64,000 nt of DNA from a virus (IMGVR_UViG_3300008448_000004:1-64000), one strand, 5' to 3'; counted from the first letter of the stretch, positions 29,403 through 60,550 are shown. Made by a program: numbers and translations. The notes: generated by a model from the letters alone, not told the origin.

Positions 29403-29452
29403 TAACTACTTGAGAATGAATGAGTTATAACTAGTTGATAATCAATGATTTA
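29403..29452. repeat. Tandem 25-bp palindrome pair (locus A)
   Basis: TAACTACTTGAGAATGAATGAGTTA directly followed by TAACTAGTTGATAATCAATGATTTA. Confidence 0.85.
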
Positions 29453-29462
29453 CATATAATAG

Positions 29463-29490
29463 AAAAGCCCCATATCGGGGCTCTTTTTTT
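29463..29490. terminator. Probable bidirectional terminator
   Basis: AAAAGCCCC-ATATC-GGGGCTCTTTTTTT. Confidence 0.75.
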
Positions 29491-29565
29491 AGTTGAGTAT
29501 AATGATCGAGATCTCGTGAGGATAGCCGGGTAGTATTTGAACCGGCACTGATGTGATTTGCATAT

Positions 29566-29853
29566 TTAATTTTTAATTTCATCAAAATAGAAGGTTAACG
29601 CCTTATTGTACCCTGTTTCAATATTGACATAAGTACCACCGTACTCAACAACAGCACCTGATTCTACTAAGCGCTTTGCTCGCTTAAGACGCCTTGCTAC
29701 CAGCGAATCATTTACATCAGAACGAGGATCTTCCATGAATGAAGTGGCCGTATACTCACCTCCGCAACCACATCTGCAATGGTGATCTTTACCTAAATAG
29801 ACTTGAGAAATCTGATTGAGCGTAGCGCTCAGGAATTGTTCTTTGTTTAACAT
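29566..29853 (-). CDS. Hypothetical early protein
   Basis: Start moved to MLNKEQ (29853) after an A-rich leader; contains HHCRCGCGG. Confidence 0.7.
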   Translation of the reverse strand: MLNKEQFLSATLNQISQVYLGKDHHCRCGCGGEYTATSFMEDPRSDVNDSLVARRLKRAKRLVESGAVVEYGGTYVNIETGYNKALTFYFDEIKN

Positions 29854-29872
29854 AACTTTTATTTTTATTTGA

Positions 29873-30241
29873 TTAATAATCGTAAGACATAGCCTGTCTT
29901 TCAGCAACTTTACTAGTAGAAGGATGCGCGTAAACAAATCCTATTATACCAGTCTTTTTATCTTGACAAGAAACATACACAATTTCTGCTTTTTCAAATC
30001 CGGCTTCTAAAACTGCCGGCCAACCTCCGTTGAATTTGAATGTCTGCGTAAAGCCTGTATTATAACGCTCAGTTTCTGGTTTAAGATTGTAAAGATCTTT
30101 GCAAACTATAGAAATTTGTTTCATAATAGGATCATTGAAACTGTAAACAGGAACTCCATAATCACAAGCGTCATTGTATATGCGCTTTGATTTGCTTTTA
30201 ATTTCTTTAACTAAGTGACCCATCTCTTTGTAAACTGACAT
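29873..30241 (-). CDS. Hypothetical early protein
   Basis: Start moved to MSVYKEM (30241) after the A-rich leader AATCAAAAATAAAAGTT. Confidence 0.7.
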   Translation of the reverse strand: MSVYKEMGHLVKEIKSKSKRIYNDACDYGVPVYSFNDPIMKQISIVCKDLYNLKPETERYNTGFTQTFKFNGGWPAVLEAGFEKAEIVYVSCQDKKTGIIGFVYAHPSTSKVAERQAMSYDY

Positions 30242-30260
30242 AACTTTTATTTTTGATTGA

Positions 30261-30710
30261 TTAAGAAATTTTCCAAGCTTGATGAACACGACGCTTAAGC
30301 CTAGTACTGTTGTCGATAAGTACACCATCTTTAACAACTAAAGCATGACCTCTAACAAGCACATAGTAGGTACCGGAAGGATACTTCTTGATAAAGGTCT
30401 GCACATTCATACAACGCTTCCGCATCCAACCGCCAGGCTGTTTATATTCTTGAATAACAGTAACCTCAACAGTCATCTTACCAAAAGGAGTTGAGACTTT
30501 AAAATCGTTTACGATTGCTTTAGTCTTTGTACCTTTACCGTTAATCCGGCCCCAATTCTTCTGAGCATAAGCATGAGCTTGATCGTACGGTACATTACAG
30601 GCAACAGCGAGGGAATTTACAGCACAGTTGTTAGTATCCCCATTCTTAAGAATAGCATCACCGTTGTGTAGAACTTCTTTGTTAATATCCAGGACATCAA
30701 CTTTTAACAT
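30261..30710 (-). CDS. Hypothetical early protein with a papain-like peptidase pattern (C...H...D)
   Basis: DTNNCAVNSLAVA...YVLVRGHALVVKDGVLID. Confidence 0.6.
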   Translation of the reverse strand: MLKVDVLDINKEVLHNGDAILKNGDTNNCAVNSLAVACNVPYDQAHAYAQKNWGRINGKGTKTKAIVNDFKVSTPFGKMTVEVTVIQEYKQPGGWMRKRCMNVQTFIKKYPSGTYYVLVRGHALVVKDGVLIDNSTRLKRRVHQAWKIS

Positions 30711-30735
30711 AACCTATTTTTTTATTTTTGATTGA

Positions 30736-30972
30736 TTAGAGATAGTCGTAAATATCGTAAGAGTGAGTATCAGGATAAACCTCGATAATATCATTTTGAA
30801 AAAGCTCTAAGCATTTCTCATATGATTCACGCGACTTACAAGGATGGTCAATTGAACCATTACCTACTTTACGGTGCATACGAACGATATCGTAGCTATC
30901 AATGTAACCGGTTCTTTGAGCGGCGTAAAGCTCGTCATCTGTCTGGAAAGTGAATTTGTAATCTGTTGTCAT
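30736..30972 (-). CDS. Hypothetical early protein
   Basis: 78 aa ORF directly downstream of the early promoter at 30995-31025. Confidence 0.7.
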   Translation of the reverse strand: MTTDYKFTFQTDDELYAAQRTGYIDSYDIVRMHRKVGNGSIDHPCKSRESYEKCLELFQNDIIEVYPDTHSYDIYDYL

Positions 30973-30994
30973 AACTATTATTGATTGATATAAC

Positions 30995-31025
30995 TAAAGA
31001 TACGTACAATATCTCAGACGAGCAA
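30995..31025 (-). promoter_or_regulatory. Early promoter, consensus copy
   Basis: AAGTTGCTCGTCTGAG...TATCTTTAGTTATATCAATC; 20-nt spacer. Confidence 0.85.
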
Positions 31026-31056
31026 CTTTTTCTTAAAAAAAGATAAAAAAAGTTCC

Positions 31057-31110
31057 TAACCCGTTGATTCTCAATAAGTTAGACATAACTCGTTGATTTT
31101 CAATTAGTTA
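31057..31110. repeat. Tandem 25-bp palindrome pair (locus B)
   Basis: TAACCCGTTGATTCTCAATAAGTTA, 4-nt spacer GACA, TAACTCGTTGATTTTCAATTAGTTA. Confidence 0.9.
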
Positions 31111-31487
31111 GGAAACACCCAACGGTATATAAGATATCCAATGGTGAATATAGAAGCCCACACAAAGAGAAAAATCCATACATGCTTATTAGCTAGTCCA
31201 GCTTTAACCTTTTCACTTATGAACTTCTTTTTTACTACCGGCTTTTCTTCATGTATAACAGTAACAGTAGCACCTTCCATTTCAACAGGCTCTTTCTTAC
31301 TTCCCTTTAGACGTCCGTTGTATGTAATAAAAGCAGTATAGGTAGTTCTATTGTTATTATAGGGTGAAATGTAGACTGTTAAATTAGTATCTACAATATC
31401 ACGAGGTTCTTTATCCTTTAAAAACTCATCAAGGAGCCTATCTAGCTCCTGTAATGAATCCGCTTCTACTAAAAACGACTGTACCAT
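31104..31487 (-). CDS. Hypothetical protein with C-terminal transmembrane helix
   Basis: 127 aa; its stop codon lies inside the 25-bp palindrome at 31086-31110. Confidence 0.7.
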   Translation of the reverse strand: MVQSFLVEADSLQELDRLLDEFLKDKEPRDIVDTNLTVYISPYNNNRTTYTAFITYNGRLKGSKKEPVEMEGATVTVIHEEKPVVKKKFISEKVKAGLANKHVWIFLFVWASIFTIGYLIYRWVFPN

Positions 31488-31489
31488 TG

Positions 31490-31600
31490 TTAGTTGAGAA
31501 AGAGGTTAAACATCATCCTAAAAATCCAACTCCAAAAGAAATACCCTAGAGTCAGTATAAGAGCCCAGGTAATGATGAAGGGCCAGTTATACTTTTTCAT
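31490..31600 (-). CDS. Small membrane peptide (36 aa)
   Basis: Translated by hand: MKKYNWPFIITWALILTLGYFFWSWIFRMMFNLFLN*. Confidence 0.5.
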   Translation of the reverse strand: MKKYNWPFIITWALILTLGYFFWSWIFRMMFNLFLN

Positions 31601-31808
31601 CTTCATAAGTTTCAACCACGGCAATAACTGGTTCAAGGCTTTTACCGGCTTTGATCCAATCGAAAGTCTCTCTAGCTATCTTTTCATTATAGCTCAGTGA
31701 ATCGGGAACAAATCTACCATCCTTCTTAGTATACCACATAGAACGCTCTTGCATACCGGATAAAGTTTGTTCGATCTTTGTTTCTTTGATGAATTCAATT
31801 TTTGACAT
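31587..31808 (-). CDS. Hypothetical protein
   Basis: 73 aa ORF. Confidence 0.7.
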   Translation of the reverse strand: MSKIEFIKETKIEQTLSGMQERSMWYTKKDGRFVPDSLSYNEKIARETFDWIKAGKSLEPVIAVVETYEDEKV

Positions 31809-31813
31809 AACGT

Positions 31814-31966
31814 TTATTTTTTGTTGATTAAGAATTGCTTTAACAGGAGTGAAATTATATATGCTAGAGATGTTACTATAAAAGTAACAATAAAGAGATC
31901 GGACTTTATTGCAAAGATACTAATCAATACCATCAACGCAAAGAATAGGAAGACGTACTTGTACAT
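31814..31966 (-). CDS. Small membrane protein
   Basis: Start moved to MYKYVFLFF (31966); two hydrophobic helices. Confidence 0.55.
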   Translation of the reverse strand: MYKYVFLFFALMVLISIFAIKSDLFIVTFIVTSLAYIISLLLKQFLINKK

Positions 31967-31967
31967 A

Positions 31968-32108
31968 TTACTTTCTTTCATACCTATCCAATAACTGTTT
32001 AAGAATAGAATTCTCAAGCTTTAAATCTTGAATCTGTCCATGTTGCATAAAGGAATAAATTCCTAGACCAACAATAACAAGAACTAAAATTGCAACTAGC
32101 ATAACCAT
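31968..32108 (-). CDS. Small membrane-anchored protein (46 aa)
   Basis: Translated by hand: MVMLVAILVLVIVGLGIYSFMQHGQ...ERK*; directly after the promoter at 32118. Confidence 0.55.
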   Translation of the reverse strand: MVMLVAILVLVIVGLGIYSFMQHGQIQDLKLENSILKQLLDRYERK

Positions 32109-32117
32109 TGATTTAAC

Positions 32118-32147
32118 TAAAGATAGTAACTTAGCTTCTAACCCCAA
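32118..32147 (-). promoter_or_regulatory. Early promoter variant
   Basis: TTTG-N19-TATCTTTAGTTAAATCAAT. Confidence 0.7.
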
Positions 32148-32214
32148 ACTCTTTACAGATCGTCATGAAGAAGGTTTCCCGCGCGAGATAGCCTACTTTA
32201 TTTATATATTGATA

Positions 32215-32553
32215 TCACTTCCAATATATGTTAATCAAGATAATGATCAAGGAAAGTGTAATACAGATACCGGTCTTTACAGTAACCGGTTCACGGAAAA
32301 TGATCCAAGACATAACCGAAAACGTAATCACTCCCACTCCTTGTCCGATTAATCTCCCTTGCCAAGTAGCTCCAAAGTAGGCATTAATCAATTCAGTATA
32401 CTTGACAAGTAAAAAGCCAATCGGTATACTAACTATGGCTAGAACCCAATAAGACCCCTTTAGAATGGGAAATTTAGATGACCCTTGTAATTGAAGATAA
32501 GATATGACCTGGGCGATGGTCACCAAGAGGAGCGGGTATAAAAGCTTTATCAT
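32215..32553 (-). CDS. DMT/SMR-like (EamA half-repeat) membrane protein
   Basis: 112 aa with four hydrophobic helices; C-terminal FREPVTVKTGICITLSL matches the DMT F-x-E-x(5)-G pattern. Confidence 0.65.
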   Translation of the reverse strand: MIKLLYPLLLVTIAQVISYLQLQGSSKFPILKGSYWVLAIVSIPIGFLLVKYTELINAYFGATWQGRLIGQGVGVITFSVMSWIIFREPVTVKTGICITLSLIIILINIYWK

Positions 32554-32765
32554 ATGTATTCGATTAAAAGTTCTTCGGAGGGTAAAAGACGCTGGAGACC
32601 TAAAAACTTGTCCGGATGATCAAAGGGCTTGGCTTGAGATTGGTCCATAGTCCAAACCGGTCGACCGCCTTTCTCCAAACCGAGAAAAAACCCGTATTGG
32701 CTAAAGATCACAAACTCCCCCTTCCCGACCTCTCCATTAGTATTAGACGATACTCTTCGAGCCAT
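32550..32765 (-). CDS. Hypothetical protein
   Basis: 71 aa ORF, coupled to the next gene. Confidence 0.65.
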   Translation of the reverse strand: MARRVSSNTNGEVGKGEFVIFSQYGFFLGLEKGGRPVWTMDQSQAKPFDHPDKFLGLQRLLPSEELLIEYI

Positions 32766-32799
32766 AATAGGAAGTTAAAAAGTTTACCAAACATATTGA

Positions 32800-33123
32800 T
32801 TACTTGTAATTAGGTTCTACTAATGATCCATCTGCTTGCCTGGAAGCAAAATCTATCCAATAGGCTACATCTTCGGGTAGACAATGGCCTTTAACTGTAT
32901 CACCGCCCGGAAACTCAAACCAATTATTCTCTCCATCCCAAATAGCTATTTCGGCCGTAGGACAAGAGTAGATCGGATCACGTTTAATCCAATCAAGAGG
33001 ATCGATATCGGTTCTATTAAGAGAATGGTTATCACAATAGTTACTCGTACCCCACTGTACGGATATAGTCCAACCATTGACAAAACTGATCTGAAAGCCT
33101 TTATTAAATGTAGATTTGAACAT
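32800..33123 (-). CDS. Hypothetical protein
   Basis: 107 aa ORF (KGFQISFVNGWTISVQWG...YC...TAEIAIW). Confidence 0.7.
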   Translation of the reverse strand: MFKSTFNKGFQISFVNGWTISVQWGTSNYCDNHSLNRTDIDPLDWIKRDPIYSCPTAEIAIWDGENNWFEFPGGDTVKGHCLPEDVAYWIDFASRQADGSLVEPNYK

Positions 33124-33250
33124 AACTGAAATATTTATATATTTTACTTAATAGAATTTTTTCTTGGAATCTTGCGAGGCAAGTAACGTGAACTGATTGA
33201 TAAAAAGTAAGATAGGAATATATATTCCCTTAAGTGGTAGGATTTAGAAT

Positions 33251-33410
33251 TCCTTGCAGAGCTATCAAGCCCTTCGGGCTCCTAGTGTACTGCCTATGGG
33301 CTGTAATTACGTTGGTGTCAGACTGACAGCAGACTGCTCTTGACCGGGGGTAGGGTGCGGGCAGGCCACTCCTACATGACCACCCGCTAACCCACGGCTC
33401 CTGTGAGGGA
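33251..33410 (-). ncRNA. Candidate structured non-coding RNA (unidentified)
   Basis: Intergenic, 94/160 G+C by hand count; long hairpin GCGGGTGGTCAT-GTAGGA-GTGGCCTGCCCGC plus further stems; no family recognised. Confidence 0.35.
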
Positions 33411-33412
33411 TA

Positions 33413-33637
33413 TTAGGCGTTCATAGAGGCCAGCTTAGTAGCTAGTGTCTCACGGCGATACGCCATACGATAAGCAGTATTGGTGATAGTGTCGTTGAAA
33501 CGACGGCCAGCCAGTACATTGCTTACATGCGATGCAGAATAGTTCAACTCGCTTGCGATGTTAACGATGTCGCCACGCTTACGGCGTTGAGCTACCTTTA
33601 CCAGTTTAAATACCGGTGTCAATTTTTGGAATGCCAT
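33413..33637 (-). CDS. Small basic helix-turn-helix DNA-binding protein (Cro/XRE-like)
   Basis: GDIVNIASELNYSASHVSNVLAGRR fits an HTH; Arg/Lys-rich; TATTTATA motif at 33663-33670 upstream. Confidence 0.75.
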   Translation of the reverse strand: MAFQKLTPVFKLVKVAQRRKRGDIVNIASELNYSASHVSNVLAGRRFNDTITNTAYRMAYRRETLATKLASMNA

Positions 33638-33662
33638 GTTAAATGGTTTTGTTGTTAGTGAA

Positions 33663-33670
33663 TATAAATA
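33663..33670 (-). promoter_or_regulatory. Putative late promoter TATTTATA (HTH gene)
   Basis: 26 nt upstream of 33637. Confidence 0.5.
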
Positions 33671-33728
33671 AAAGATTTCTATTGTCTTATCTATATAAGG
33701 TAAGGACTTTATCTCTGACTACATACTC

Positions 33729-33992
33729 TTACCAGATCGAACCATCGAGTTCATTTGTATCACCATCCTCCAGGTTACCATCTTCATCGTATACATCTCT
33801 ATCATCAGCAGCATCCATAGAGGCGATCAGGTAATCTAGCTCAGTAAGCTCCTCTTGGAGGCCATATTGGATATCATTCCAATGATCGGATTCGGACTTA
33901 GATAGTTCTAGCTCATAGATCTCATCAGTGAGTTGAGCAATAAGGTCTACTAGTTCTTCTTTTAAGGTCTTAATTGTTTCTGTTCTTGACAT
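33729..33992 (-). CDS. Highly acidic small protein
   Basis: 87 aa, strongly Asp/Glu-rich; possible DNA-mimic-like protein (inference). Confidence 0.7.
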   Translation of the reverse strand: MSRTETIKTLKEELVDLIAQLTDEIYELELSKSESDHWNDIQYGLQEELTELDYLIASMDAADDRDVYDEDGNLEDGDTNELDGSIW

Positions 33993-34023
33993 AGTGATTA
34001 GTTAAAGAGTGATGAAAGAAAGT

Positions 34024-34062
34024 GGAGGGGGACCGGCCCGAAATGCCGGCCCTGCGACCTCC
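34024..34062 (-). terminator. GC-rich hairpin after the DUF932 gene
   Basis: GGAGG..GGGCCGGC-ATTTCGG-GCCGGTCC.CCTCC followed by ACTTTCTTT. Confidence 0.65.
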
Positions 34063-34076
34063 TATTTATCAATCAA

Positions 34077-34910
34077 TCAAACAAACTGCTCAGTTAATGC
34101 CCAGAGCTTCTGGTTCAGCTCAAGGTCTTTCAGCATATTAGTAATCTTACGCACCTTACGTGCACCGCCATTAGCGGTTGTAGTCTCAAAGCCACCTCCT
34201 ACGAGATGCTCTTGAACACGATTGAATACTTTCCAGAGAGTATTACCATCATCCTCTTTACGAGTAGACTGGAGTATCTGACGTACCTCATCATCGGTAC
34301 ACTCTCTTTCTTCACCCATACGGGTCTGCAAGGCTTGCTTAGCGAACTCGGTCTGCTCTTTAGCAGTCATTACCTTCTCAGACAAGACGTTAATCTTCTG
34401 AGTTACTTGAGGTAGAGCGGCCACGGCATCGTTAACCAGCTTCTTAAGCTCATCAAAGGAATAACCTAAGTGACGCATTACAAATGAACCCATATCTTTA
34501 TCCTTAACTACAAGGCCGTTTGAACATACAAGGCGGAATACTCCGATCTCGAATTTAAACTTACCCCAACCTCTGTGGTTGTTCATGATAACGATCTGAG
34601 GATAGGCCTCGATACCACCGTTAGCATCTTGGATGAAGATGGACGGGTTAAAGAACTTGACCAGATGTTTACCATACTTGGTCTGTACTTGATCGGAAGA
34701 CTTCATTGCCTTAGCATCACATACCTCCCAACCGAGGGTCTTCATATCCTCGATGATCTGATAGGTAGGGATGAAGGTATACTTCTTCGAAGTCTTATCG
34801 TAAGGCTCCTGGGTGTAGACCTGAGGTGCTGCTTCACGGATCTGATCGGCAGACATTACGGTCAATGATTTGAACTTAGCTGTTTTCTGTTCCTGTGTAG
34901 GTGTAGACAT
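34077..34910 (-). CDS. DUF932/DUF945-family protein
   Basis: TSKKYTFIPTYQIIEDM...YGKHLVKF...PQIVIMNNH...GVFRLVCSNGLVV...RH...NTLWKVFNRVQEHL...LNQKLWALTE. Confidence 0.85.
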   Translation of the reverse strand: MSTPTQEQKTAKFKSLTVMSADQIREAAPQVYTQEPYDKTSKKYTFIPTYQIIEDMKTLGWEVCDAKAMKSSDQVQTKYGKHLVKFFNPSIFIQDANGGIEAYPQIVIMNNHRGWGKFKFEIGVFRLVCSNGLVVKDKDMGSFVMRHLGYSFDELKKLVNDAVAALPQVTQKINVLSEKVMTAKEQTEFAKQALQTRMGEERECTDDEVRQILQSTRKEDDGNTLWKVFNRVQEHLVGGGFETTTANGGARKVRKITNMLKDLELNQKLWALTEQFV

Positions 34911-34938
34911 AACTTTTATTTTTTTTATTTGATTTATA

Positions 34939-34969
34939 TAAAGATAAGAACTTTATTTCATACTAGCAA
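34939..34969 (-). promoter_or_regulatory. Early promoter (DUF932 gene)
   Basis: AAGTTGCTAGTATGAA...TATCTTTA; 20-nt spacer. Confidence 0.85.
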
Positions 34970-34976
34970 CTTTATT

Positions 34977-35306
34977 TTAGAAGCAGATAGAATCTCTTTC
35001 GGCCCAATCCTGCTCCTCAAGCTTTTCAATAGCACTGGCCAGACCGGGGTACCACTTAGCTGTATAAGCCTCGTAGGAGAGCTCTTTTTCATCCTTCATC
35101 ATATTACGAGAAGGAATGTAGATACAATCGCCATTAGAAGCTGACATCGATACCTGACAGTCAGGCATCATATCGGCCATCGCCTCAGCATTAGCAACCA
35201 TGACATCAGCATTATAGTCCTGGATTGTGATCCCATCTCCATTATCGATTTCGATAACATCGGTGAGCTGATTGATTACTTTGATCTTGATTGATACTAC
35301 TGACAT
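34977..35306 (-). CDS. Hypothetical acidic early protein
   Basis: 109 aa ORF directly after the promoter at 35328. Confidence 0.7.
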   Translation of the reverse strand: MSVVSIKIKVINQLTDVIEIDNGDGITIQDYNADVMVANAEAMADMMPDCQVSMSASNGDCIYIPSRNMMKDEKELSYEAYTAKWYPGLASAIEKLEEQDWAERDSICF

Positions 35307-35327
35307 ATGATTGATGATTGATATAAC

Positions 35328-35358
35328 TAAAGATAGGAACTATTTCTCAGACTAGCAA
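35328..35358 (-). promoter_or_regulatory. Early promoter, consensus copy
   Basis: AAGTTGCTAGTCTGAG...TATCTTTAGTTATATCAATC; 20-nt spacer. Confidence 0.85.
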
Positions 35359-35366
35359 CTTTATTT

Positions 35367-35480
35367 TTAAAGCCTTACATCTTTTTCTGGCTTCATAAAC
35401 CTAGCCGCTACCAAGATACTTATACAAACTACCATTGCCAGACCGGCCTCCTGAAACATCTCTTTTAAAATCTCTATCAT
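35367..35480 (-). CDS. Small membrane peptide (37 aa)
   Basis: Translated by hand: MIEILKEMFQEAGLAMVVCISILVAARFMKPEKDVRL*; lies between two early promoters. Confidence 0.5.
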   Translation of the reverse strand: MIEILKEMFQEAGLAMVVCISILVAARFMKPEKDVRL

Positions 35481-35500
35481 ATTATTTGATTGACTATACA

Positions 35501-35531
35501 TAAAGGTAGATACTTTCTTTCAGACTAGCAA
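35501..35531 (-). promoter_or_regulatory. Early promoter
   Basis: AAGTTGCTAGTCTGAA...TACCTTTA; 20-nt spacer. Confidence 0.85.
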
Positions 35532-35540
35532 CTTTATTTA

Positions 35541-35618
35541 TAACTCATTGATTATCAATCGATTCGATATAGCCGGAATAAATATATATTTGCTAACTAA
35601 TTGATTCTGAAGGAGTTA
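35541..35618. repeat. Two degenerate 25-bp palindromes (locus C)
   Basis: TAACTCATTGATTATCAATCGATTC (35541-35565) and TAACTAATTGATTCTGAAGGAGTTA (35594-35618). Confidence 0.7.
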
Positions 35619-35799
35619 TCCCGCGCGGGGGAGTATCTTCTTTCCTATCCCAACACATTTCTCTATATTTTTATACACACAATCTAGATCCTAATCTATA
35701 TTCTATTACCTTATTAGCCTTTCATCTCCCCTGTCTTATTTTCTCTATATCTTTTATACACATTCTACTTTGCTTTAAATCTCCCTTATCTAATAGGGT

Positions 35800-36420
35800 C
35801 TAGAAGGGGTTTCTCGGTATGGGGACCGAATAGTATCTATCCAGCCACGTCCATACATCTTCAGCATCGGTAAACGGTCCTCCGAATACCGGATAGTTAT
35901 CTGCCATATATTCTTCTTCTATCTCTTTCCATCCTCTTTGATTATCAAATAGCCGTTCTCTTTCAAAGTGTATTCCTTCTATGAATCCTGATACCCATAT
36001 ATCTTCATCTGTATAATTTGGAAACAGGCCTTCATCTGGGATTCTATCTATGGCCTCTTTTCTTAATATGGTTTCTTGATACTTGGCAGCCGCCTTGACT
36101 AGTTCTTGACTTGGGGGAGGAGGTTCTTCTATCGCTTTTATCAATATATCTAGATCCTCTTTTGAATAAGATTCAACAGAAGGTAGTCCCGAATACTCAC
36201 AAGTATCTGTCTTATTATATGTTTCGTTGTAGTATTGTTCTCCATTTTCATTTGGTGGCAATATATTTTTGCCATTATTATGTGCCTCTATTATCTGCTC
36301 TTTCTCCATCTCTTTTGCTCTCTCTACTACTTCTAGCCATTCTCTACCTGTTAACTTTTCTTGATTCTCTTTACTCGATATCTGGTCTATCAACCAATTT
36401 ACTGCTGTTTGTTGTGCCAT
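35800..36420 (-). CDS. Mosaic hypothetical protein (TAVxWL...AKEMEKEQI module)
   Basis: 206 aa; N-terminus is paralogous to 36424..36627. Confidence 0.7.
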   Translation of the reverse strand: MAQQTAVNWLIDQISSKENQEKLTGREWLEVVERAKEMEKEQIIEAHNNGKNILPPNENGEQYYNETYNKTDTCEYSGLPSVESYSKEDLDILIKAIEEPPPPSQELVKAAAKYQETILRKEAIDRIPDEGLFPNYTDEDIWVSGFIEGIHFERERLFDNQRGWKEIEEEYMADNYPVFGGPFTDAEDVWTWLDRYYSVPIPRNPF

Positions 36421-36423
36421 AGT

Positions 36424-36627
36424 TTATTTGTTATATGTTTCTTTATAAAAAATTTCTGCTTCAATTAAAGCATCTTTTTTATCAATGTCTACTGTGCCAT
36501 TCCAATAAGCATCCATTATCTGCTCCTTCTCCATTTGTTTGGCATGATAAAACAAGTGAGCTTTTTCTAATCTATGCTCAAGAGGTAATCTTTGAAGTTC
36601 TGCAATCAACCATTCTACTGCTGTCAT
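36424..36627 (-). CDS. Hypothetical protein (TAVEWL...AKQMEKEQI family)
   Basis: 67 aa paralog of the N-terminus of 35800..36420. Confidence 0.7.
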   Translation of the reverse strand: MTAVEWLIAELQRLPLEHRLEKAHLFYHAKQMEKEQIMDAYWNGTVDIDKKDALIEAEIFYKETYNK

Positions 36628-36628
36628 T

Positions 36629-36763
36629 TTATTCTGATTTAGAAGTTAAATACCCTGTTACAAATCCATTAATCCACATCTGCTTGTCTGTCTCATTACA
36701 TCCATGACATCCTTCCCACATGCTTTCAGCTAGTTGTTTAATTTCTTCTAATGTTTGTGCCAT
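36629..36763 (-). CDS. Small hypothetical protein (44 aa)
   Basis: Translated by hand: MAQTLEEIKQLAESMWEGCHGCNETDKQMWINGFVTGYLTSKSE*. Confidence 0.55.
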   Translation of the reverse strand: MAQTLEEIKQLAESMWEGCHGCNETDKQMWINGFVTGYLTSKSE

Positions 36764-36776
36764 AGTTATTTGTTTT

Positions 36777-37019
36777 TTAACTCAATAATTCATCCATCGA
36801 TACCCCATGCTTATTTAATATCTGATAGAACTCCTCTCTTGCTCGGTCTAAAGCATCATAAGCTTCCTGGGTTAGATCTTCGTTATACTTTGTCTGCGAT
36901 CTTAGATACTGATCTACATCCCATAACGCTAGCACGATATCCAATGCCTTAACCGCTCTTAAATGTCCCTGACGGTCATCGGGTTCGTTTAAATCGAATT
37001 CAAGTATTCCTTTTGCCAT
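36777..37019 (-). CDS. Hypothetical protein
   Basis: 80 aa ORF starting MAKGILEFDLNEPDD. Confidence 0.7.
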   Translation of the reverse strand: MAKGILEFDLNEPDDRQGHLRAVKALDIVLALWDVDQYLRSQTKYNEDLTQEAYDALDRAREEFYQILNKHGVSMDELLS

Positions 37020-37020
37020 A

Positions 37021-37287
37021 TTATTTGTTATTTGTTATTTTCTTAATCATAAACTGTATTAGCTTTACTAATAGGATTACCGCCCCTACCCTGCCTACGA
37101 TCTCGCCCGGTTCCATCTCCTGGGTCTCGTCTGATATCAAAATCCATGTCACTCCTACCACTATCGATAATCCGTAGACATTAAATAGAATAGCTAAAGG
37201 AAGAGCAATTATGATACCTATCCATTCGGCTATCTTCAATAGTACTATTTCTAATAAGCTTTCACCACCGGGTCTATATTTTTTCAT
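37021..37287 (-). CDS. Membrane protein
   Basis: 88 aa with 2-3 hydrophobic helices. Confidence 0.65.
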   Translation of the reverse strand: MKKYRPGGESLLEIVLLKIAEWIGIIIALPLAILFNVYGLSIVVGVTWILISDETQEMEPGEIVGRVGAVILLVKLIQFMIKKITNNK

Positions 37288-37398
37288 CGATCTACTTTAT
37301 ACTTTTTCAAGCTAGGAACGAGAGCCGGGCGGCCGGCGCTATTTTTTCTCGCGCGCGTCACCGTCTTGGGATCGAGATCGGCGCCCCCTTTCTGCTTA

Positions 37399-37653
37399 CT
37401 AGTAGTGTACGGGTTCATAAGTCATTTCAAAAATATCTGGCTTGCAAGGATAGATCTCACCTTTAACGCCTTTTATTACCCAATCTCCTTTGTCTGCTTT
37501 CATTACTCCTTCTAGAGTTGCAATATACAGGCCTTCTTCTGAATTGTTAATTCCTAATCCATCTCCTTTCATCTCTATAATCTGCTTGACTGATTCTGGA
37601 TCTGTGTACTGAATTGCTTCTACGAAAACTTGTTTCTTTTGAAAAATTGGCAT
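37399..37653 (-). CDS. Conserved phage protein (PGDYG-like)
   Basis: IATLEGVMKADKGDWVIKGVKGEIYPCKPDIFEMTY. Confidence 0.75.
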   Translation of the reverse strand: MPIFQKKQVFVEAIQYTDPESVKQIIEMKGDGLGINNSEEGLYIATLEGVMKADKGDWVIKGVKGEIYPCKPDIFEMTYEPVHY

Positions 37654-37656
37654 ACT

Positions 37657-38211: not shown

Positions 38212-38280
38212 CTTGTAGTTTGTTTGTTCATTCTAAATATAGTAAATAAACTTCTAATAAACTACTCTATAAGGTTCATA

Positions 38281-42174: not shown

Positions 42175-42196
42175 AACTACTATTGATTGATATAAC

Positions 42197-42227
42197 TAAA
42201 GATACGGAGACTATCTCAGACGAGCAA
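42197..42227 (-). promoter_or_regulatory. Early promoter, consensus copy
   Basis: AAGTTGCTCGTCTGAG...TATCTTTAGTTATATCAATC; 20-nt spacer. Confidence 0.85.
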
Positions 42228-42251
42228 CTTTATTTTAAAAAGTACAAAAAA

Positions 42252-42301
42252 AAGCCCATTGAGAATCAATGGGTTATAACTTATTGAGAATCAATGAGTT
42301 A
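42252..42301. repeat. Tandem 25-bp palindrome pair (locus D)
   Basis: AAGCCCATTGAGAATCAATGGGTTA directly followed by TAACTTATTGAGAATCAATGAGTTA. Confidence 0.92.
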
Positions 42302-49956: not shown

Positions 49957-49978
49957 ATCCTTGATTGATTAATATACC

Positions 49979-50009
49979 TTAAGATAGGAATCTTTTTTCA
50001 GACGAGCAA
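49979..50009 (-). promoter_or_regulatory. Early promoter
   Basis: AAGTTGCTCGTCTGAA...TATCTTAAGGTATAT; 20-nt spacer. Confidence 0.85.
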
Positions 50010-50033
50010 CTTTTTCTTGAAAAATACAGAAAA

Positions 50034-50083
50034 AAGTTTATTGAGAATCAATGAGTTATAACCTATTGAGAATCAATGAGTTA
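50034..50083. repeat. Tandem 25-bp palindrome pair (locus E)
   Basis: AAGTTTATTGAGAATCAATGAGTTA directly followed by TAACCTATTGAGAATCAATGAGTTA. Confidence 0.92.
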
Positions 50084-53921: not shown

Positions 53922-55109
53922 TTACTGTCCTTTTATAGGGAATCTAGTCCATCCATTAATCCAAGTAGGCATAGCAATCTCCGGAATCGTTATGCTAATC
54001 TCTTTATTTCCTTGAGTTAATGCTTTTACTTTTACGTCATCTGAAGTAATAACTGAAGACTTGCTTATAAAGTTTAAACTGGGTATAAAAGATCCTACCG
54101 AGTTATCTTCGAATTTAGACGTACCATCTTTATAAAAGGTAGCAGTCTCATTTGATTCTAAACTGAATCCTCCTTTCATATAGCCGAAGAATGTTGAGTT
54201 GGTAACAGTAAATTGTGTAGCTCTTCTGAATCTTAGAGCTAGGTTATGGTTAGTCAAAGCATCAGCGACGTTAGGGCCAATTAAAACTAACCCTATCAGC
54301 TTTGGATGAGTGAATGGTTGAGCTGTAGAGCCTACACCGTCGTTATCACACTCAACTCCGTTACCGGCATCTCCGTTATCTACAAACTGCGGATCACGTT
54401 TTGCTATACTATTACTAACAGTTCCAGTATAACCGAAATCAAAATCGTAATCATCATCTGCTGTAGCAAATGCATATAAATTTTTAGGCGATACAGTACC
54501 GCCGAAGAATTCAAATGCATCGTCGTTAGCGTAAACTGTTTGCACGTATTCAATTATAGTGCCTGAACCTACGGCGCCTAAAGTAAGTGCGTTAATTTCA
54601 GAGTTAGGTAAAGCAGCAATGCCGGCATATTCGATACGAACATACTTCAGTATACCGCTATTGTCGCTATCATCGGTACCTCCGTAAGGACGTCCCACGC
54701 CTCCTTCAATAGTTGGTTCAGATGAACGATTAGTTTTAGCTTTACCCAAAATAATAATACCGCCCCAGTCACCAGGAGATCTCTCGCCGGCGATTTTACC
54801 TGAAGTGAATATGATTGGCTTTTGAGCAGTTCCTTCAGCTAGTATCTTTGCTCCTCTTTCGATACACAAAGCACCTTTTTCTGCAATATCACTTTTGATT
54901 ACAGTACCTGGTTGGATGATAAGAGTAGCACCTTCTTTAACATAAACGTACCCTTTTAATGTCCATTCCTTATCTGATGTTAAAGTTGTGGTTGTTGTAA
55001 TATTACCTGTTATAATTTTGTCTATAGGTACATTGATTGGTTCATCCACAGGACTCTTTTTACATGCAAATAGACCGATAAGTACTAACAGCGATACTAG
55101 CTTTTTCAT
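53922..55109 (-). CDS. Bacteroidota-type surface lipoprotein with parallel beta-helix repeats, partner of the TonB receptor
   Basis: Lipobox LFAC followed by KKSPVDEP; GDWGGIIILGKA, DNSGILKYVRIEYAG, NDDAFEFFGG, DDDYDFDFGY, NGVECDND, WINGWTRF. Confidence 0.85.
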   Translation of the reverse strand: MKKLVSLLVLIGLFACKKSPVDEPINVPIDKIITGNITTTTTLTSDKEWTLKGYVYVKEGATLIIQPGTVIKSDIAEKGALCIERGAKILAEGTAQKPIIFTSGKIAGERSPGDWGGIIILGKAKTNRSSEPTIEGGVGRPYGGTDDSDNSGILKYVRIEYAGIAALPNSEINALTLGAVGSGTIIEYVQTVYANDDAFEFFGGTVSPKNLYAFATADDDYDFDFGYTGTVSNSIAKRDPQFVDNGDAGNGVECDNDGVGSTAQPFTHPKLIGLVLIGPNVADALTNHNLALRFRRATQFTVTNSTFFGYMKGGFSLESNETATFYKDGTSKFEDNSVGSFIPSLNFISKSSVITSDDVKVKALTQGNKEISITIPEIAMPTWINGWTRFPIKGQ

Positions 55110-57361
55110 AAATTAAAGTTTAATGATAGTGAAATTGTTTGTTCGTTATTTGTTTTAATTAGATCACCTCTTGATTTTTGATAGTAGATAGACGGTTGGG
55201 CTAGTATATCGCTTATCGCTAACTTAATCTCACCTTTACCTGCTTTACGTAGATAAACTACATCAACCACATCTCTTGAATTTTCAAAGATGTCTGAGTA
55301 GCCTTGAAAGCCTACAGCAGATATTCTATCTCCAGTTCTATTATAGGATACATTAAAAGTATTCTTATTCTTATGTATATTGACTCCGCTATTAACTACA
55401 TAATCAGATTGACCTTGTAACCTTCTCTTAAGTCCGGTACCGGTAACCTGAGAATGTATTAGGGAACTATTCGTATAGATTTCTAACCACTTGGTAACAT
55501 TCTTTCTCACTTCTACTTCTATACCTACTGTTACTGCTTTCTTGGGATTAGAAAATGTTAATAGTAGGTTAGAAGGTACAGAACCATCTGCTACAATCTG
55601 TTCAATAGGGTTAGTGAATTGTTTACCGAATAAACTAACAGATATATTCTCTCCAGCTTTAGGATAGTATTCCCATTTCAAGTCCAAGTTATAGATGTCT
55701 GTCTTTTTAAGATTAGGATTACCGAGCAGCTGAGCATTTCTTACAAAGTCGTAGTAGGCAAAGTTAGCTACCTCTCTAAATTCAGGACGTGCTAAAGTCT
55801 TTGAAGCTGAGAAGCGATACTTCACTTTATCTAAACTATAGGATAGGTTAATAGAAGGTAGTATATCTAGGTATACTCTATTGACGTTAAGTCTCTGTCC
55901 AGAAAAGTCTGCAGTATATAAATCAAATATATTATATTCACTTCTAAGACCTCCGGATACTTTTAATTTTTTAAATTGATTATCATATTGAATGAAGCTG
56001 CTTCCTAAAAAGAAATTAGCGGTATACCTGTCTGTATTATTTGTTATTTCCTCTAATAAGTCTTCTCTCTGGTATCTAAATATTCTTGCTTTAAAAGCTC
56101 TACCTCTTTGTAGGTAGTTTGCACCTACTTTAAAGTTACTCAACTCTTTAGATAAACCTAAGTTGAAACTCTCTTCGTTCATATCAGACCAAAACCTGTA
56201 TGTATCCCTCCACGCTACAGTGTATAGATCTTCTGTACCTAAAGATCTGACTTTAGGAGTTACTCTATAATCAGGCTGATCTCTTACCATAAGATTGAAT
56301 CCTGCTTGAGCATCCCAGGACTTTATTTTTGCTTCTATCTGTGAATTTAAAAATGTCTTGATAATATTATTTGTAGAAGTAGTACTAACTTGCTGTACGT
56401 TGTCGTAGTTTAGTCCTGATCTTGTTAGGTAAGATCTATCTATCTGTCTGTTGAAATTGGTCTTGAATGTATACTTGTTCTCTCCAAGGTAGGTTAGGTT
56501 TAAGAAACTATTTAAAAGAGAGGTGTTGGTGTAGACAGTATCTTTGTACTTGTACGCTAATTCAGAGCTTGATTGGTAATCTAACCTATCAATATAATTT
56601 AAAGTATAGTTGTTTCTAAAAGACGTATTAAACAATATTCCAAGTTTACCTCTTTTATTTCCTACTGTAAAGCTGCTATTAAGGTTAGGAAAGGATGTAA
56701 ACTTCTTTACGGGTGGAGTTTTTATAAGAGACGTGTACTGCTCTTTTTGAACATTGTTAGATACTCTATAAAGGTAAGTACTAGGAAACGTGGAGGGGAA
56801 CACCGCTTGGTGTACTAATTTAAAATCTCTCGCGGTTGAAATCGTCCCCCATCCACTTCCTATTCCTGCTGAAATAAAGTTACTTGTAACCTCTTTTAGG
56901 TTAACTTGAATTATGCCACCTGCAAAATCTCCCGGTAAGTTTGGGCTTGCTGATTTTAATACAATAATATTATCTATAAGTCCTGTAGGTATGATATCAA
57001 AAGAGAAAGCTCTTCTATCAGGCTCGGTAGAAGGTAGTACCGTTCTTCCTATCATTGCAACATTATACCTATCCGATAGACCTCTGACTAGTACATATTT
57101 ATCAGACTGTATCGTTACTCCGCTAACTCTCTTAAGAGCATCACTAACAACTCTGTCAGGTGTTCTTTTTAAAGCTTCAACAGAAACTCCATCCGAGATA
57201 GAAATATTGTTCCTAACTGTTGATATAACAGCTGAAATGTTTTCTTTCTTTGCGGAAGAACGAACTACTATTTTCGAAAGAGTCTGGTTAAATAAAGTGT
57301 CTTGTGAAAAACTAACTTGTGTTATGAAGAGACAAGCAGTAAGAAAAAGCCTAGCAACCAT
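55106..57361 (-). CDS. TonB-dependent outer-membrane receptor
   Basis: Signal peptide; plug domain SDALKRVSGVTI...VLVRGLSDRYN...FSFDIIPTGLIDNIIVLKSASPNLPGDFAGG; barrel segments SASKTLARPEFRE, GNPNLKK, DLKWEYY; C-terminal ISLSLNFNL. Confidence 0.93.
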   Translation of the reverse strand: MVARLFLTACLFITQVSFSQDTLFNQTLSKIVVRSSAKKENISAVISTVRNNISISDGVSVEALKRTPDRVVSDALKRVSGVTIQSDKYVLVRGLSDRYNVAMIGRTVLPSTEPDRRAFSFDIIPTGLIDNIIVLKSASPNLPGDFAGGIIQVNLKEVTSNFISAGIGSGWGTISTARDFKLVHQAVFPSTFPSTYLYRVSNNVQKEQYTSLIKTPPVKKFTSFPNLNSSFTVGNKRGKLGILFNTSFRNNYTLNYIDRLDYQSSSELAYKYKDTVYTNTSLLNSFLNLTYLGENKYTFKTNFNRQIDRSYLTRSGLNYDNVQQVSTTSTNNIIKTFLNSQIEAKIKSWDAQAGFNLMVRDQPDYRVTPKVRSLGTEDLYTVAWRDTYRFWSDMNEESFNLGLSKELSNFKVGANYLQRGRAFKARIFRYQREDLLEEITNNTDRYTANFFLGSSFIQYDNQFKKLKVSGGLRSEYNIFDLYTADFSGQRLNVNRVYLDILPSINLSYSLDKVKYRFSASKTLARPEFREVANFAYYDFVRNAQLLGNPNLKKTDIYNLDLKWEYYPKAGENISVSLFGKQFTNPIEQIVADGSVPSNLLLTFSNPKKAVTVGIEVEVRKNVTKWLEIYTNSSLIHSQVTGTGLKRRLQGQSDYVVNSGVNIHKNKNTFNVSYNRTGDRISAVGFQGYSDIFENSRDVVDVVYLRKAGKGEIKLAISDILAQPSIYYQKSRGDLIKTNNEQTISLSLNFNL

Positions 57362-57804: not shown

Positions 57805-58242
57805 TGGTGGAGATGACGGGAGTCGAACCCGTGTCTCCGAAAGAGACAATAACACCAACGTTTCACATGCTTAGTACTGCTTTCGGGCCCGTATGCTAAA
57901 CTTAGGCTAGCTGGGTCTGTCTACTGCACCGTAAGGGCTGACCGGTTATGGTCGAATCCACCACCTTGTTTTAATTGACTACAAGGAAAACTACGGCTCG
58001 CAATATGCGTCCGGATGCCGTCTCTATAGCGTACGACTCGCTGTTGTGTTCTGTTCCTAGGCTCTCTACCGCCCGATGCGGACTAGGCTGCTACAGCGTA
58101 GTCGGCGCCTACGAAAGACATTAAGTCTTCGAAGGTCATAGTTGACATTTCGTCATTTGTTGTTTAGTATCTTCTAAGGCAGTATACTCAAATGCCTGCA
58201 TGTGGTATTACCTCAACATTCGGATCAATACCAAACATCCCC
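57805..58242 (-). ncRNA. ssrA: tmRNA (ssrA), one-piece, 438 nt
   Basis: 5' GGGGATG pairs with CATCTCC-A-CCA-3' and gives the G3:U70 Ala determinant. T-arm GGGTTCGACTCCC. Pseudoknot 1 is GGCA/TGCC with AGTAT/ATACT. The tag frame ends ...DYAVAA-TAG (58083-58154). Confidence 0.96.
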
Positions 58243-58501: not shown

Positions 58502-58537
58502 AAAAAAAAGAGCCCCGAGCCTAGACAAGCTAGGGCG
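58502..58537 (-). terminator. Terminator-like hairpin
   Basis: CCTAG-CTTGT-CTAGG inside a GC-rich stem, followed by T8. Confidence 0.6.
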
Positions 58538-58543
58538 TTTAGG

Positions 58544-58945
58544 TTATGAAAACAATTCTTTAAAGCATCTTGTTCTATCTTTTCGAGCTATGATACGGGC
58601 TTCTACTTCTAACGGATCTCCATCTTCGAAAGCCATATCCAATTTACCTTCTTTAGCCATTGCTCGTAAATGACTTCTTAACGGCTGCTGGTAGTGTACC
58701 CATTCGTGAATCATAGTATCGATGATATCCATTATCGTCTTATTCTTATCTTTGCTTACGAAGATCGTATTTTCTATCCAATCATACTCTCCGTAAATTC
58801 CTTCAGTAAGGTAGTCTTCTTTTCGATACTGCAAGTCCGGATATGGTCCGTTTATCTTGCTCCTCCCGTAATTAGATACACACCACCAATACACTTTTTC
58901 GACATCTGCTCTAGTTGGCTTGCTCTGTTTAGTTCTCTTCTTCAT
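58544..58945 (-). CDS. HExxH zinc metallopeptidase-like protein
   Basis: GEYDWIENTIFV...IIDTMIHEWVHYQQ...PLEVEAR. Confidence 0.7.
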   Translation of the reverse strand: MKKRTKQSKPTRADVEKVYWWCVSNYGRSKINGPYPDLQYRKEDYLTEGIYGEYDWIENTIFVSKDKNKTIMDIIDTMIHEWVHYQQPLRSHLRAMAKEGKLDMAFEDGDPLEVEARIIARKDRTRCFKELFS

Positions 58946-59038
58946 AGTTATACCTTTTACGTGGTTAAAGATACAACCTATTTCTTAGAGTTAAAACTAT
59001 CCTCTGCTCCTAGCAGCAATTATAAATATAGAACTGCT

Positions 59039-59458
59039 TTACTTTTCGTTGAGAACTTCTTTAAGAGGCTTAGTCCATCCACCGTACTGTGAGGTAGCAA
59101 TCCAGCCTGTTTCGGGATCGTAAAGGTAGTTGAACTCCTCGGCGATCTTGTTACTGTAAAACTCTTCCAGGGTAGTGGTCTTAGCTTCTGAGTTTTTCTC
59201 GTTTCGATCTCGTCCGTAGAAGACGCAAACATCTTCTTGAGGATCATCAAAGGTATGAGTAGCGTCTGAAGAAGCGGTGATCTTCTCGTTTAAGGAACTA
59301 AGGTCTCCTAGTTCTAAAATCTGATCGATCAATTCTGGATCGGTATAATACTCTTGTAAGAGTACTCCGTTATGTTCAGGGTATCCGTCCCAGTGACAGT
59401 ATACAGAGGTTACTGAACCATCAGAATTTAACTTGCCAATTCGTGAACGTGTTGCCAT
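59039..59458 (-). CDS. Conserved phage early protein
   Basis: MATRSRIG...SVYCHWDGYPEHNGVLL...LGDLSSL...FYGRDR...EEFNYLY. Confidence 0.75.
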   Translation of the reverse strand: MATRSRIGKLNSDGSVTSVYCHWDGYPEHNGVLLQEYYTDPELIDQILELGDLSSLNEKITASSDATHTFDDPQEDVCVFYGRDRNEKNSEAKTTTLEEFYSNKIAEEFNYLYDPETGWIATSQYGGWTKPLKEVLNEK

Positions 59459-59483
59459 GTGTTTATATATTTTTGGTTAGGAA

Positions 59484-60332
59484 TTAAGCACGGGAGTAGG
59501 TTACTTGCTCCCGTGTGATGTTGAATGCGAGTCTTTCGCCAGCAGTTCCGAGACGGTTCTTACTGAACTCCATTATGCAACGATTCTCTTCTCTATCGCG
59601 AGACATTTCGAGCATTGCGGAAGTCATATGCTTAAGACGGTTGCTTCCTAAGAAGTCTCCGTTCTTAGTTACTTGCTGAATAATCAGGAAGCAGGTATAT
59701 AGGCTAGCTTGGTTGTAGCCTTCGTTATGCTTTTCCATAAGATCTAAAATCCAGCTCTCAGCTTGAGACTTAGACATTCCGGAGTAATCCTGAACGGTAC
59801 GGCACACCTCAGCCCAAGAGTCTATGAGCACAAGATCGTAACCGTTCTGCAAGATTCGTTCGATAGCTACAACAGGATTCGTCTTAGCATAGTCGGCCAG
59901 GAATAGGATATCCAGGTCAGCGAAAGCAGGGAAACGTTTACAGTAGCGGAACATATCTATTCGGCCCATCTCTCCGGAGATGAATAGAACTTTCTTACCA
60001 GATCGCTTCGCACGATCTACAAAGTCAAGACCTACAGTCGACTTACCTACACCGGGACTACCGATAAGGATTACGTTTGTAGCGGGCATAAAGCCGCCTT
60101 CGGAGGAAATAAACTGGTCAAGATTCTTATTACCAGTTCTGATTGGAGAGAAGATTTGCTGATCAAAATTTAGATCTTTAATCCTAACGGTGTTTACATC
60201 GAAGGTACCGTAGTTAGTTTCCATTTTAGGAACTGAAGGATTGTTGCTGATTAGTCCGAGAGTCTTTGCTCGAACATAACCTACCATCTTACCCGTAGCA
60301 GGGTTCAGGAATTTTTGTTGTGTTAGATTCAT
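59484..60332 (-). CDS. RadA/Sms-like RecA-superfamily ATPase (without Zn finger and Lon domain)
   Basis: NLDQFISSEGGFMPA, GSPGVGKST Walker A, VLFISGEM, LVLIDSW Walker B, IIQQVTKNGDFLGSNRLKHM, SKNRLG. Confidence 0.85.
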   Translation of the reverse strand: MNLTQQKFLNPATGKMVGYVRAKTLGLISNNPSVPKMETNYGTFDVNTVRIKDLNFDQQIFSPIRTGNKNLDQFISSEGGFMPATNVILIGSPGVGKSTVGLDFVDRAKRSGKKVLFISGEMGRIDMFRYCKRFPAFADLDILFLADYAKTNPVVAIERILQNGYDLVLIDSWAEVCRTVQDYSGMSKSQAESWILDLMEKHNEGYNQASLYTCFLIIQQVTKNGDFLGSNRLKHMTSAMLEMSRDREENRCIMEFSKNRLGTAGERLAFNITREQVTYSRA

Positions 60333-60366
60333 AACCTATTATTGTTTTACTTTTGACTGATATAAC

Positions 60367-60397
60367 TAAAGATAGATACTTTTTTTCAGACTAGCAA
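60367..60397 (-). promoter_or_regulatory. Early promoter (RadA-like gene)
   Basis: AAGTTGCTAGTCTGAA...TATCTTTAGTTATATCAGTC; 20-nt spacer. Confidence 0.85.
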
Positions 60398-60446
60398 CTT
60401 TTTGTTGATCTTTTTTTTCTATCTTTTGCTTTCTCATTAATATACC

Positions 60447-60477
60447 GAAAGATAGGAACTATTTTTCAGACTAGCAA
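60447..60477 (-). promoter_or_regulatory. Early promoter, tandem copy 80 bp upstream of the previous one
   Basis: AAGTTGCTAGTCTGAA...TATCTTTCGGTATAT; 20-nt spacer. Confidence 0.8.
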
Positions 60478-60496
60478 CTTTTTTTCAAACAAAAAA

Positions 60497-60550
60497 TAAC
60501 CCACTGAGAATCAATGAGTTATACCTAACTACTTGAGAATCAATGAGTTA
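60497..60550. repeat. Tandem 25-bp palindrome pair (locus F)
   Basis: TAACCCACTGAGAATCAATGAGTTA, 4-nt spacer TACC, TAACTACTTGAGAATCAATGAGTTA. Confidence 0.92.

Follow-up and report, generated by a model that had tools for sequence, protein, structure and literature searches.

T4-type phages carry, in their hyperplastic regions, small cassettes called PeSLs, in which a transcription-terminating stem-loop stands directly before a strong early promoter and which recombine with one another to generate indels and mini-circles (Arbiol et al., 2010, PMC2839356; Comeau et al., 2014, PMC4122927). The published stems are short, GC-rich and lineage-specific, and no protein site has been proposed in them. 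Binding sites of IHF form a second point of comparison: they include H' in lambda attP and the sites that precede lambda pL and Mu Pe, and in the RIP and RIB elements of E. coli bacterial interspersed mosaic elements (BIMEs) an IHF site is flanked by repetitive extragenic palindromic (REP) sequences, as separate modules. Here we describe a 25-bp imperfect palindrome found as six pairs in the early region of a T4-like phage of Bacteroidota. The window, meaning the whole stretch of 64,000 nucleotides that was analyzed (IMGVR_UViG_3300008448_000004:1-64000), covers the opening 64 kb of a virus genome of 180,934 bp rated 100% complete (G000), which carries a T4 Gp23 major capsid gene (PF07068, G000:136692-138119, E = 6e-74) and a baseplate wedge gene at 17570-19453. 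The palindrome loci are probably PeSL-type boundary cassettes. The full reading that we favor, to which we give a probability of about 0.5 and which is built on sequence comparison, is that they are PeSL-type cassettes whose palindromes are candidate sites for a host IHF-like protein.

The palindrome pairs are real and non-random, and they mark the ends of early transcription units. Searching the window with a degenerate palindrome pattern that tolerated up to three mismatches gave 22 strand-matches, corresponding to 12 sites in six pairs, and no match in 100 dinucleotide-preserving shuffles. The copies start at 29403/29428, 31057/31086, 35541/35594, 42252/42277, 50034/50059 and 60497/60526, in agreement with the original prediction, made from the same DNA, of twelve copies at six loci. 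That prediction had noticed no copy between 1 and 29 kb; a position weight matrix built from the 12 copies, which themselves score 25-35 bits on it, detects nothing else that scores above 12 bits anywhere in the 180,934 bp of the genome, and all 12 are restricted to the early region at 29.4-60.6 kb. Three pairs abut, two have a 4-nt spacer and the 35541 pair has the 28-nt gap first described, so that five pairs are tight, where four had been counted. The units are indeed 25 bp long, but their 11-bp arms are imperfect: none of the 12 copies is free of non-Watson-Crick positions, which fall mostly within arm positions 5-7, and the invariant part consists of four 4-bp blocks, TAAC, TTGA, TCAA and GTTA.

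Nearly all long genes of the genome, including those at 1-25 kb, are minus-strand open reading frames (ORFs), and the palindrome loci are therefore to be read on the minus strand. Read this way, each pair begins at, or just past, the TAA of the upstream gene, and the order at the cassettes is stop codon, distal copy, proximal copy, T-run/A-run and promoter. At four loci the distal copy opens with the TAA of the upstream ORF; these ORFs end at 31104, 42299, 50081 and 60548, within the outer palindrome, as had been predicted. Pair 1 (29403..29452, minus strand, as are all pairs) consists of two abutting degenerate 25-bp copies with no promoter after them, at a convergent junction of the minus-strand early block with a short plus-strand block (27308-29283). 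Pair 2 (31057..31110) has a 4-nt spacer, carries the TAA of ORF 31104-31487 in its distal copy, and has flipped centres, AAA/GAA when read on the minus strand. Pair 3 (35541..35618), with its 28-nt gap, has degenerate outer blocks. Pairs 4 (42252..42301) and 5 (50034..50083) abut and hold the TAA of ORFs 42299-42526 and 50081-50329, respectively, in the distal copy, as does pair 6 (60497..60550; 4-nt spacer) for ORF 60548-60838.

The promoters that follow the pairs share one architecture, a block AAAGTTGCT-n-GTCTGA, then 11-12 nt, then a block TATCTTTAG, which we take to be of the Bacteroidota -33/-7 type. Eleven lie in the window between 30994 and 60480, and two elsewhere in the genome, at 92442 and 149933. 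A palindrome pair precedes five of the 11 early-block promoters at 9-31 nt, and the other six directly follow coding sequence. The -33 TTG lies 31, 9, 24, 24 and 19 nt past the proximal copy of pairs 2, 3, 4, 5 and 6, so that the five loci with a pair upstream of the -33 box stand as predicted, with a range of 9-31 rather than 10-30 nt. These early-type promoters lie at 30994..31028, 35500..35534, 42196..42230, 49978..50012 and 60446..60480, all on the minus strand, the last being followed by a second promoter copy at 60366-60400, and the five cassettes can be aligned with one another over ~140 bp. A conserved leader follows the promoter, and the motif is far longer than a -33/-7 pair requires; it may represent a phage-specific early promoter class. 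The same promoter type is found on contig L288, a further carrier of the palindrome.

This layout, with a stem-loop upstream of a host-sigma early promoter and between a stop codon and the next ATG, is found at five of the six loci, 29403 being the exception, and it is that of PeSLs. The genomic setting is alike as well. The block at 29-61 kb holds many small ORFs, among which we found no paralogues, and two T4-like relatives from IMG/VR (G004 and G005) have ~60 proteins in common with the phage, almost none of them from this block, where ~10 ORFs have any match in either relative. Many small ORFs and little sharing with these relatives thus make 29-61 kb a hyperplastic region as in T4-type phages. 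As with PeSLs, the stem-loop stands just before a strong host-type early promoter in a T4-like genome, the cassette is directly repeated, and module shuffling has been proposed. Unlike the published stems, the stem-loop here consists of one specific imperfect palindrome of 25 bp, present as a tandem pair and conserved far outside this phage group and also in host chromosomes; the pair is present at five of ~11 promoter copies, and the promoter appears to be of the Bacteroidota -33/-7 type. The statement that the element belongs to no named family therefore holds for the palindrome itself, of which we found no description, but not for the cassette, whose type is named. The PeSL idea, so far one of enterobacterial and Vibrio T4 phages, is thereby extended to phages of Bacteroidota, and its stem-loop module is given a concrete, testable identity.

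Scanned across other phages and Bacteroidota, as had been suggested with the original prediction, the motif recurs in many phages and Bacteroidota genomes. The four-block pattern is present at 117 or more loci in IMG/VR, in T4-like and non-T4-like genomes. Most loci hold a second copy, at a distance of 25, 29 or 48-52 bp, and the IMG/VR matches listed include 69 pairs in 46 loci. Abutting pairs occur three times in G004 and twice in G005, each at or just past a stop codon and before a Bacteroidota-type promoter. In crAssphage ZA (L285, MK238400.1), one perfect copy at 96697-96721, for which we estimate a chance expectation of ~0.007 per genome, lies 55 bp upstream of a putative repL, by tandem iterons; it also adjoins a long inverted repeat, an arrangement that looks like a replication origin. 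At two IMG/VR loci (L017, 6459-6478; L036, 399-418), two adjacent DnaA boxes stand beside a pair and a Bacteroidota-type promoter. The repL/iteron copy and the DnaA-box pairs are contexts that fit IHF-type biology. We rejected an association with PhoH, homologues of which lie near pairs in 16 of the 46 loci, as a lineage or auxiliary metabolic gene effect: the 16 loci represent about two lineages, and phoH of this phage (G000, 135892-136575, minus strand) is next to gp23, 75 kb from the pairs.

In 185,579 bacterial and archaeal species genomes, the tandem form occurs at 120 or more loci, and 74 of the first 80 rows among the matches listed are Bacteroidota; carriers in this phylum include Microscillaceae, Bernardetiaceae, Saprospiraceae, Flavobacterium, Bacteroidales, Alistipes and Chitinophagaceae. 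A Microscillaceae metagenome-assembled genome (MAG) of 6.8 Mb (G023; loci L243-L262) has 2,181 exact matches to a pattern of 14 specified bases, and two more MAGs have 359 (G228) and 200 (G225), with controls at 0 in all three. We examined 180 kb of the motif-rich MAG at up to two mismatches and found 232 copies, or 1.3 per kb, 86% of them outside ORFs of at least 100 aa; 70 of 97 intergenic spacers (72%) hold at least one. Density is alike in convergent, tandem and divergent spacers (4.3, 3.6 and 3.7 per kb). Watson-Crick pairing at arm positions 4-7 is 0.27, 0.44, 0.41 and 0.31, against expected values of 0.26, 0.43, 0.33 and 0.33, and beyond the 25 bp only A/T richness carries information. 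Chance-level arm pairing, free flanks and even spacer density argue for a two-fold-symmetric protein site, and not for a stem, a terminator or a recent miniature inverted-repeat transposable element (MITE). A literature search with the motif as text yielded nothing beyond IHF site tables and unrelated primers, and we found no paper that describes this hyper-abundant intergenic palindrome, at ~1.3 per kb in some Bacteroidota genomes; it is a widely distributed and, in the literature searched, previously undescribed motif. It may help to assign uncultured phages to Bacteroidota hosts and to mark their early-gene cassettes.

The logo of 228 bacterial copies reads TAA, N4, YTGAT, W, ATCAR, N4, TTA, of which the conserved positions alone are YAA, YTGAT-W-ATCAR and TTR, the N4 spacers being free. 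The E. coli IHF consensus is WATCAR/A, N4, TTR (PMC9452768). All specified bases, the length of the free gap and the R/Y degeneracy at position 18/8 agree between the two. The centre is TWA in 73% of bacterial copies, although the search pattern left it free, and a TWA centre yields a perfect 13-mer on both strands. A perfect WATCAR-N4-TTR is present on at least one strand in 11 of the 12 window copies and in 188 of 225 IMG/VR copies. The alternation of GAA and TTC centres, first taken as a sign of flipped units, is better read as the WA of the consensus falling on either strand. In the numbering of H', TCAA occupies 35-38 and TTG 43-45. The complex of IHF with H' has its two kinks ~9 bp apart, and 6 bp separate T44, in the TTR element, from the closer one (PMC5829579). 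From this geometry we infer that the kink would fall between the two A's and the protein dyad on W; the 25-bp palindrome is what results when the consensus is reflected about that position.

IHF-alpha-like proteins typical of Bacteroidetes occur without IHF-beta, and their specificity was reported as untested (bioRxiv 10.1101/2024.06.24.600358). If such a protein acts as a homodimer, a symmetric site is what it should prefer. We tentatively propose that in Bacteroidota the 25-bp palindrome is the predicted site for an IHF-alpha-like nucleoid protein acting as a homodimer, a site expanded to thousands of intergenic copies in some Cytophagales-like lineages and possibly co-opted by diverse Bacteroidota phages (T4-like, crAss-like and others), where tandem pairs would frame early promoters and replication regions. 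If true, this would provide a sequence-level answer to the question, raised in a 2025 preprint, of whether Bacteroidota IHF-alpha-like proteins bind DNA specifically. In the phage cassettes, each palindrome would be bound with high affinity by an IHF-like DNA-bending protein of the host, a member of the HU family, and two adjacent sharp bends upstream, with centres at roughly -55 to -105, could act on the DNA itself to organize or insulate the early promoter. The palindromes resemble known IHF sites in their specified bases and N4 gap, in their A/T-rich flanks, and in lying before early promoters of phages and beside replication elements. They differ in being two-fold symmetric with both halves matching the consensus, in standing in tandem at 25/29/45-50 bp, and in belonging to Bacteroidota hosts, which do not have the IHF alpha/beta heterodimer. 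RIP and RIB are similar as extragenic gene-end repeats that join palindromes and an IHF site, except that here the palindrome itself would be the IHF-like site. The original prediction had offered, as one of two options, binding sites for a phage regulator or a nucleoid protein; our analysis favors the nucleoid protein, most likely encoded by the host, over the phage regulator.

Several observations weigh against an IHF-like reader. The phage genome has no HU/IHF gene. HU-family ORFs are present in four of five motif-bearing bacterial genomes, but no single binder emerged, and the MAG richest in copies, which is fragmentary, gave two weak HU-family hits only. The placement of the dyad on W depends on combining the H' numbering with the geometry of the published complex (PMC5829579). 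Neither the gap between pair and promoter (9-31 nt) nor the pair period (25 or 29 bp) shows a fixed helical phasing, and two dimers 25 bp apart would overlap if each had the fully wrapped footprint of E. coli IHF. Two hundred evenly sampled Bacteroidota genomes have mostly 0-3 exact copies each, for a hand-tallied total of ~70 against ~22 for a reversed control, low counts that do not support a phylum-wide global regulator. Finally, an exact 19-nt sequence comprising the left arm and centre of the commonest copy type in the window (window:42283-42301, minus strand) is identical in 42 stretches from ~38 diverged viral contigs.

This 19-mer is conserved beyond what the IHF-type positions need, which keeps a phage-encoded reader in play. 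Here, the 74-aa helix-turn-helix (HTH)-like protein encoded at 33413..33637 (minus strand), or another early protein, would bind the pairs cooperatively and switch the early cassettes. The 33413 ORF, which the original prediction had named as the candidate binder, is plausibly a small HTH protein: its AF2 model has four helices with a helix-turn-helix core (pLDDT 84), and a fold search returned weak XRE/LacI-like rows, none at E <= 0.001, while Pfam and PHROG gave no hit. Homologues at 63-97% identity are known. Homologues also keep company with the motif, lying 1.4 kb from a pair in G005 and 115 bp before a copy in L288, and occurring in 7 of 38 records with the exact 19-mer. The retention of the full 19-mer among diverged phages and the confinement of all copies to the early region would also suit an operator. 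Yet the distribution of homologues does not match that of the motif: they are absent from records with the 19-mer at 91% and 83% completeness, from G004 with its three pairs, and from the tested bacterial genomes in which copies number hundreds to thousands, and at five homologue loci the motif is not within 6-8 kb. Shared ancestry can account for the co-occurrence that is seen. We therefore consider a phage operator of this kind quite unlikely and treat the 74-aa protein as a weak candidate binder, not as an established part of the system.

A simpler account of the conserved palindromes is that they are plain PeSL stem-loops, RNA hairpins acting only as intrinsic terminators or 3' stabilizers at the ends of early units, whose shared sequence would be due to common ancestry and gene conversion among the cassettes and not to recognition by a protein. 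RNA folding gives this view some substance. Pair 2 with its flanks forms one long hairpin followed by a U-run (-22.5 kcal/mol, z = -3.9), as does pair 6, where the U-run comes directly after (-20.1 kcal/mol, z = -4.3), and at pair 4 (z = -4.6) the proximal copy is an 8-bp GC-strengthened stem with U8, a good intrinsic-terminator shape; GC-strengthened arms also enter T-tracts in proximal copies of G004. A blastn search with the 42252 cassette gave only weak matches (E = 0.3), leading to crAssphage ZA and to the Riemerella phage RAP44, which has a single related hairpin flanked by an A-run and a T-run. Termination by PeSL stem-loops has been demonstrated in RB49/phi1 (PMC2839356).

The other loci fit less well. 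Pair 5 has a weak proximal hairpin with a T-run after it (z = -1.1), pair 3 has neither a U-run nor a stable fold and is no better than shuffles, and the same holds for the fold of pair 1, which sits between two separate canonical GC-rich terminators: a terminator-like hairpin with a T-run just upstream (29463..29485, minus strand), which also reads as a plus-strand terminator (29466-29482), and another just downstream (29362..29380, minus strand). An Rfam search of 29-61 kb at E <= 1 matched no family at the palindromes. The palindromes thus resemble Rho-independent terminators in having a hairpin and a U-run at three to four of the six window loci, but differ in keeping specific blocks, in several weak or mismatched stems, and in lacking a U-run at many pairs in relatives. 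Arm mismatches in all window copies, perfect palindromes in just 15 of the 225 unique IMG/VR copies, and chance-level complementarity in bacterial copies that are equally dense in divergent spacers all speak against selection for a stem, and the hairpin account leaves unexplained the conservation of four specific blocks across phages and phyla-wide hosts. We regard it as improbable that the palindromes are hairpins and nothing else. Under the PeSL/IHF-like reading, the two roles would combine: at three to four loci the transcribed palindrome could fold into a hairpin with a U-run that ends or stabilizes the upstream transcript.

The second option of the original prediction was that the palindromes are recombination or cruciform sites that let promoter-led cassettes shuffle, their ends recalling tyrosine-recombinase targets. 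Promoter-led shuffling fits the anatomy and is the published PeSL idea, with the ~140-bp direct-repeat cassettes as potential substrates for homologous recombination; the tyrosine-recombinase part finds no support, as the 100%-complete genome has no match to PF00589 (Phage_integrase). Near-identical DNA is present in freshwater, lagoon and soil metagenomes from 12 studies, with relatives in many of the freshwater samples, and we aligned contigs from four runs onto 30901-50900. ORF replacements lie away from the pairs (e.g., 41746-41974 and 46765-47199). Among the joints and ends listed, two contig joints (50058->31083 and 42302->31086) and one loose end (42259) touch palindromes, and other joints fall elsewhere; since the palindromes are repeated within the stretch, these joints may be split alignments, and they give only a hint of cassette-mediated rearrangement. 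On contig L288, two shared genes stand in a different order with three motif-promoter cassettes between them. A megablast of 29-37 kb against cultured phages gave no match, and a search with the ATPase at 59484-60332 found no relative; G004 and G005 are too distant for a clean breakpoint analysis.

The same joints also count in favor of a mobile or site-specific element, such as a REP/REPIN-like or MITE-like unit mobilized by a RAYT/Y1 transposase, or a target at which a tyrosine recombinase excises cassettes. Like REP/REPIN-RAYT systems, the palindromes are short, extragenic and imperfect, sometimes form doublets, and reach hundreds to thousands of copies in some bacterial genomes, and some bacterial pairs lie within repeated units with conserved flanks. 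They nevertheless lack conserved whole-sequence identity, selection on a stem, a GTAG-type head and a flanked RAYT gene: the N4 spacers are randomized, the arms are not complementary, most copies have no conserved flanks, and of three Y1_Tnp hits in the motif-rich MAG, two have no copy nearby and the third has copies at no more than background density. Transposition or site-specific excision is thus a very improbable origin for the pairs.

A further form of the motif occurs at high-GC IMG/VR loci such as L044, L068, L076 and L080, where copies 50 bp apart surround a GC-rich spacer of 21-25 bp and are flanked by complementary A-run and T-run sequences, so that the ~100 bp as a whole could fold into a single long hairpin or into a cloverleaf. 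Promoters close by are sigma-70-like and have near-leaderless starts, a unit of similar build is found in an Enterobacterales MAG (L162), and blastn with a high-GC pair gave no match.

The early block also carries what looks like a phage-borne tmRNA at 57805-58242 (minus strand), a full-length RF00023 match (65 bits, E = 2e-23) and the sole match of the Rfam search, on which ARAGORN makes no tmRNA call; its presence is curious given that four upstream genes end within a potential hairpin. A 751-aa ORF (55106-57361, minus strand) combines a TonB-dependent-receptor Plug domain with an outer-membrane beta-barrel domain and has distant relatives in uncultured phage records. In or near the block, all on the minus strand, are genes for an Rnl1-type RNA ligase (46292-47416), thymidylate synthase (43775-44704), UDP-glucose/GDP-mannose dehydrogenase (44714-45571) and an NAD-dependent epimerase (63014-63943). 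At the other end of the window, positions 1-8000 show a GC skew of up to 0.78 and an AT skew of -0.41 over very large minus-strand ORFs of 881+, 1136 and 512 aa, which have internal similarity to one another and probably encode repetitive fibre-like proteins.

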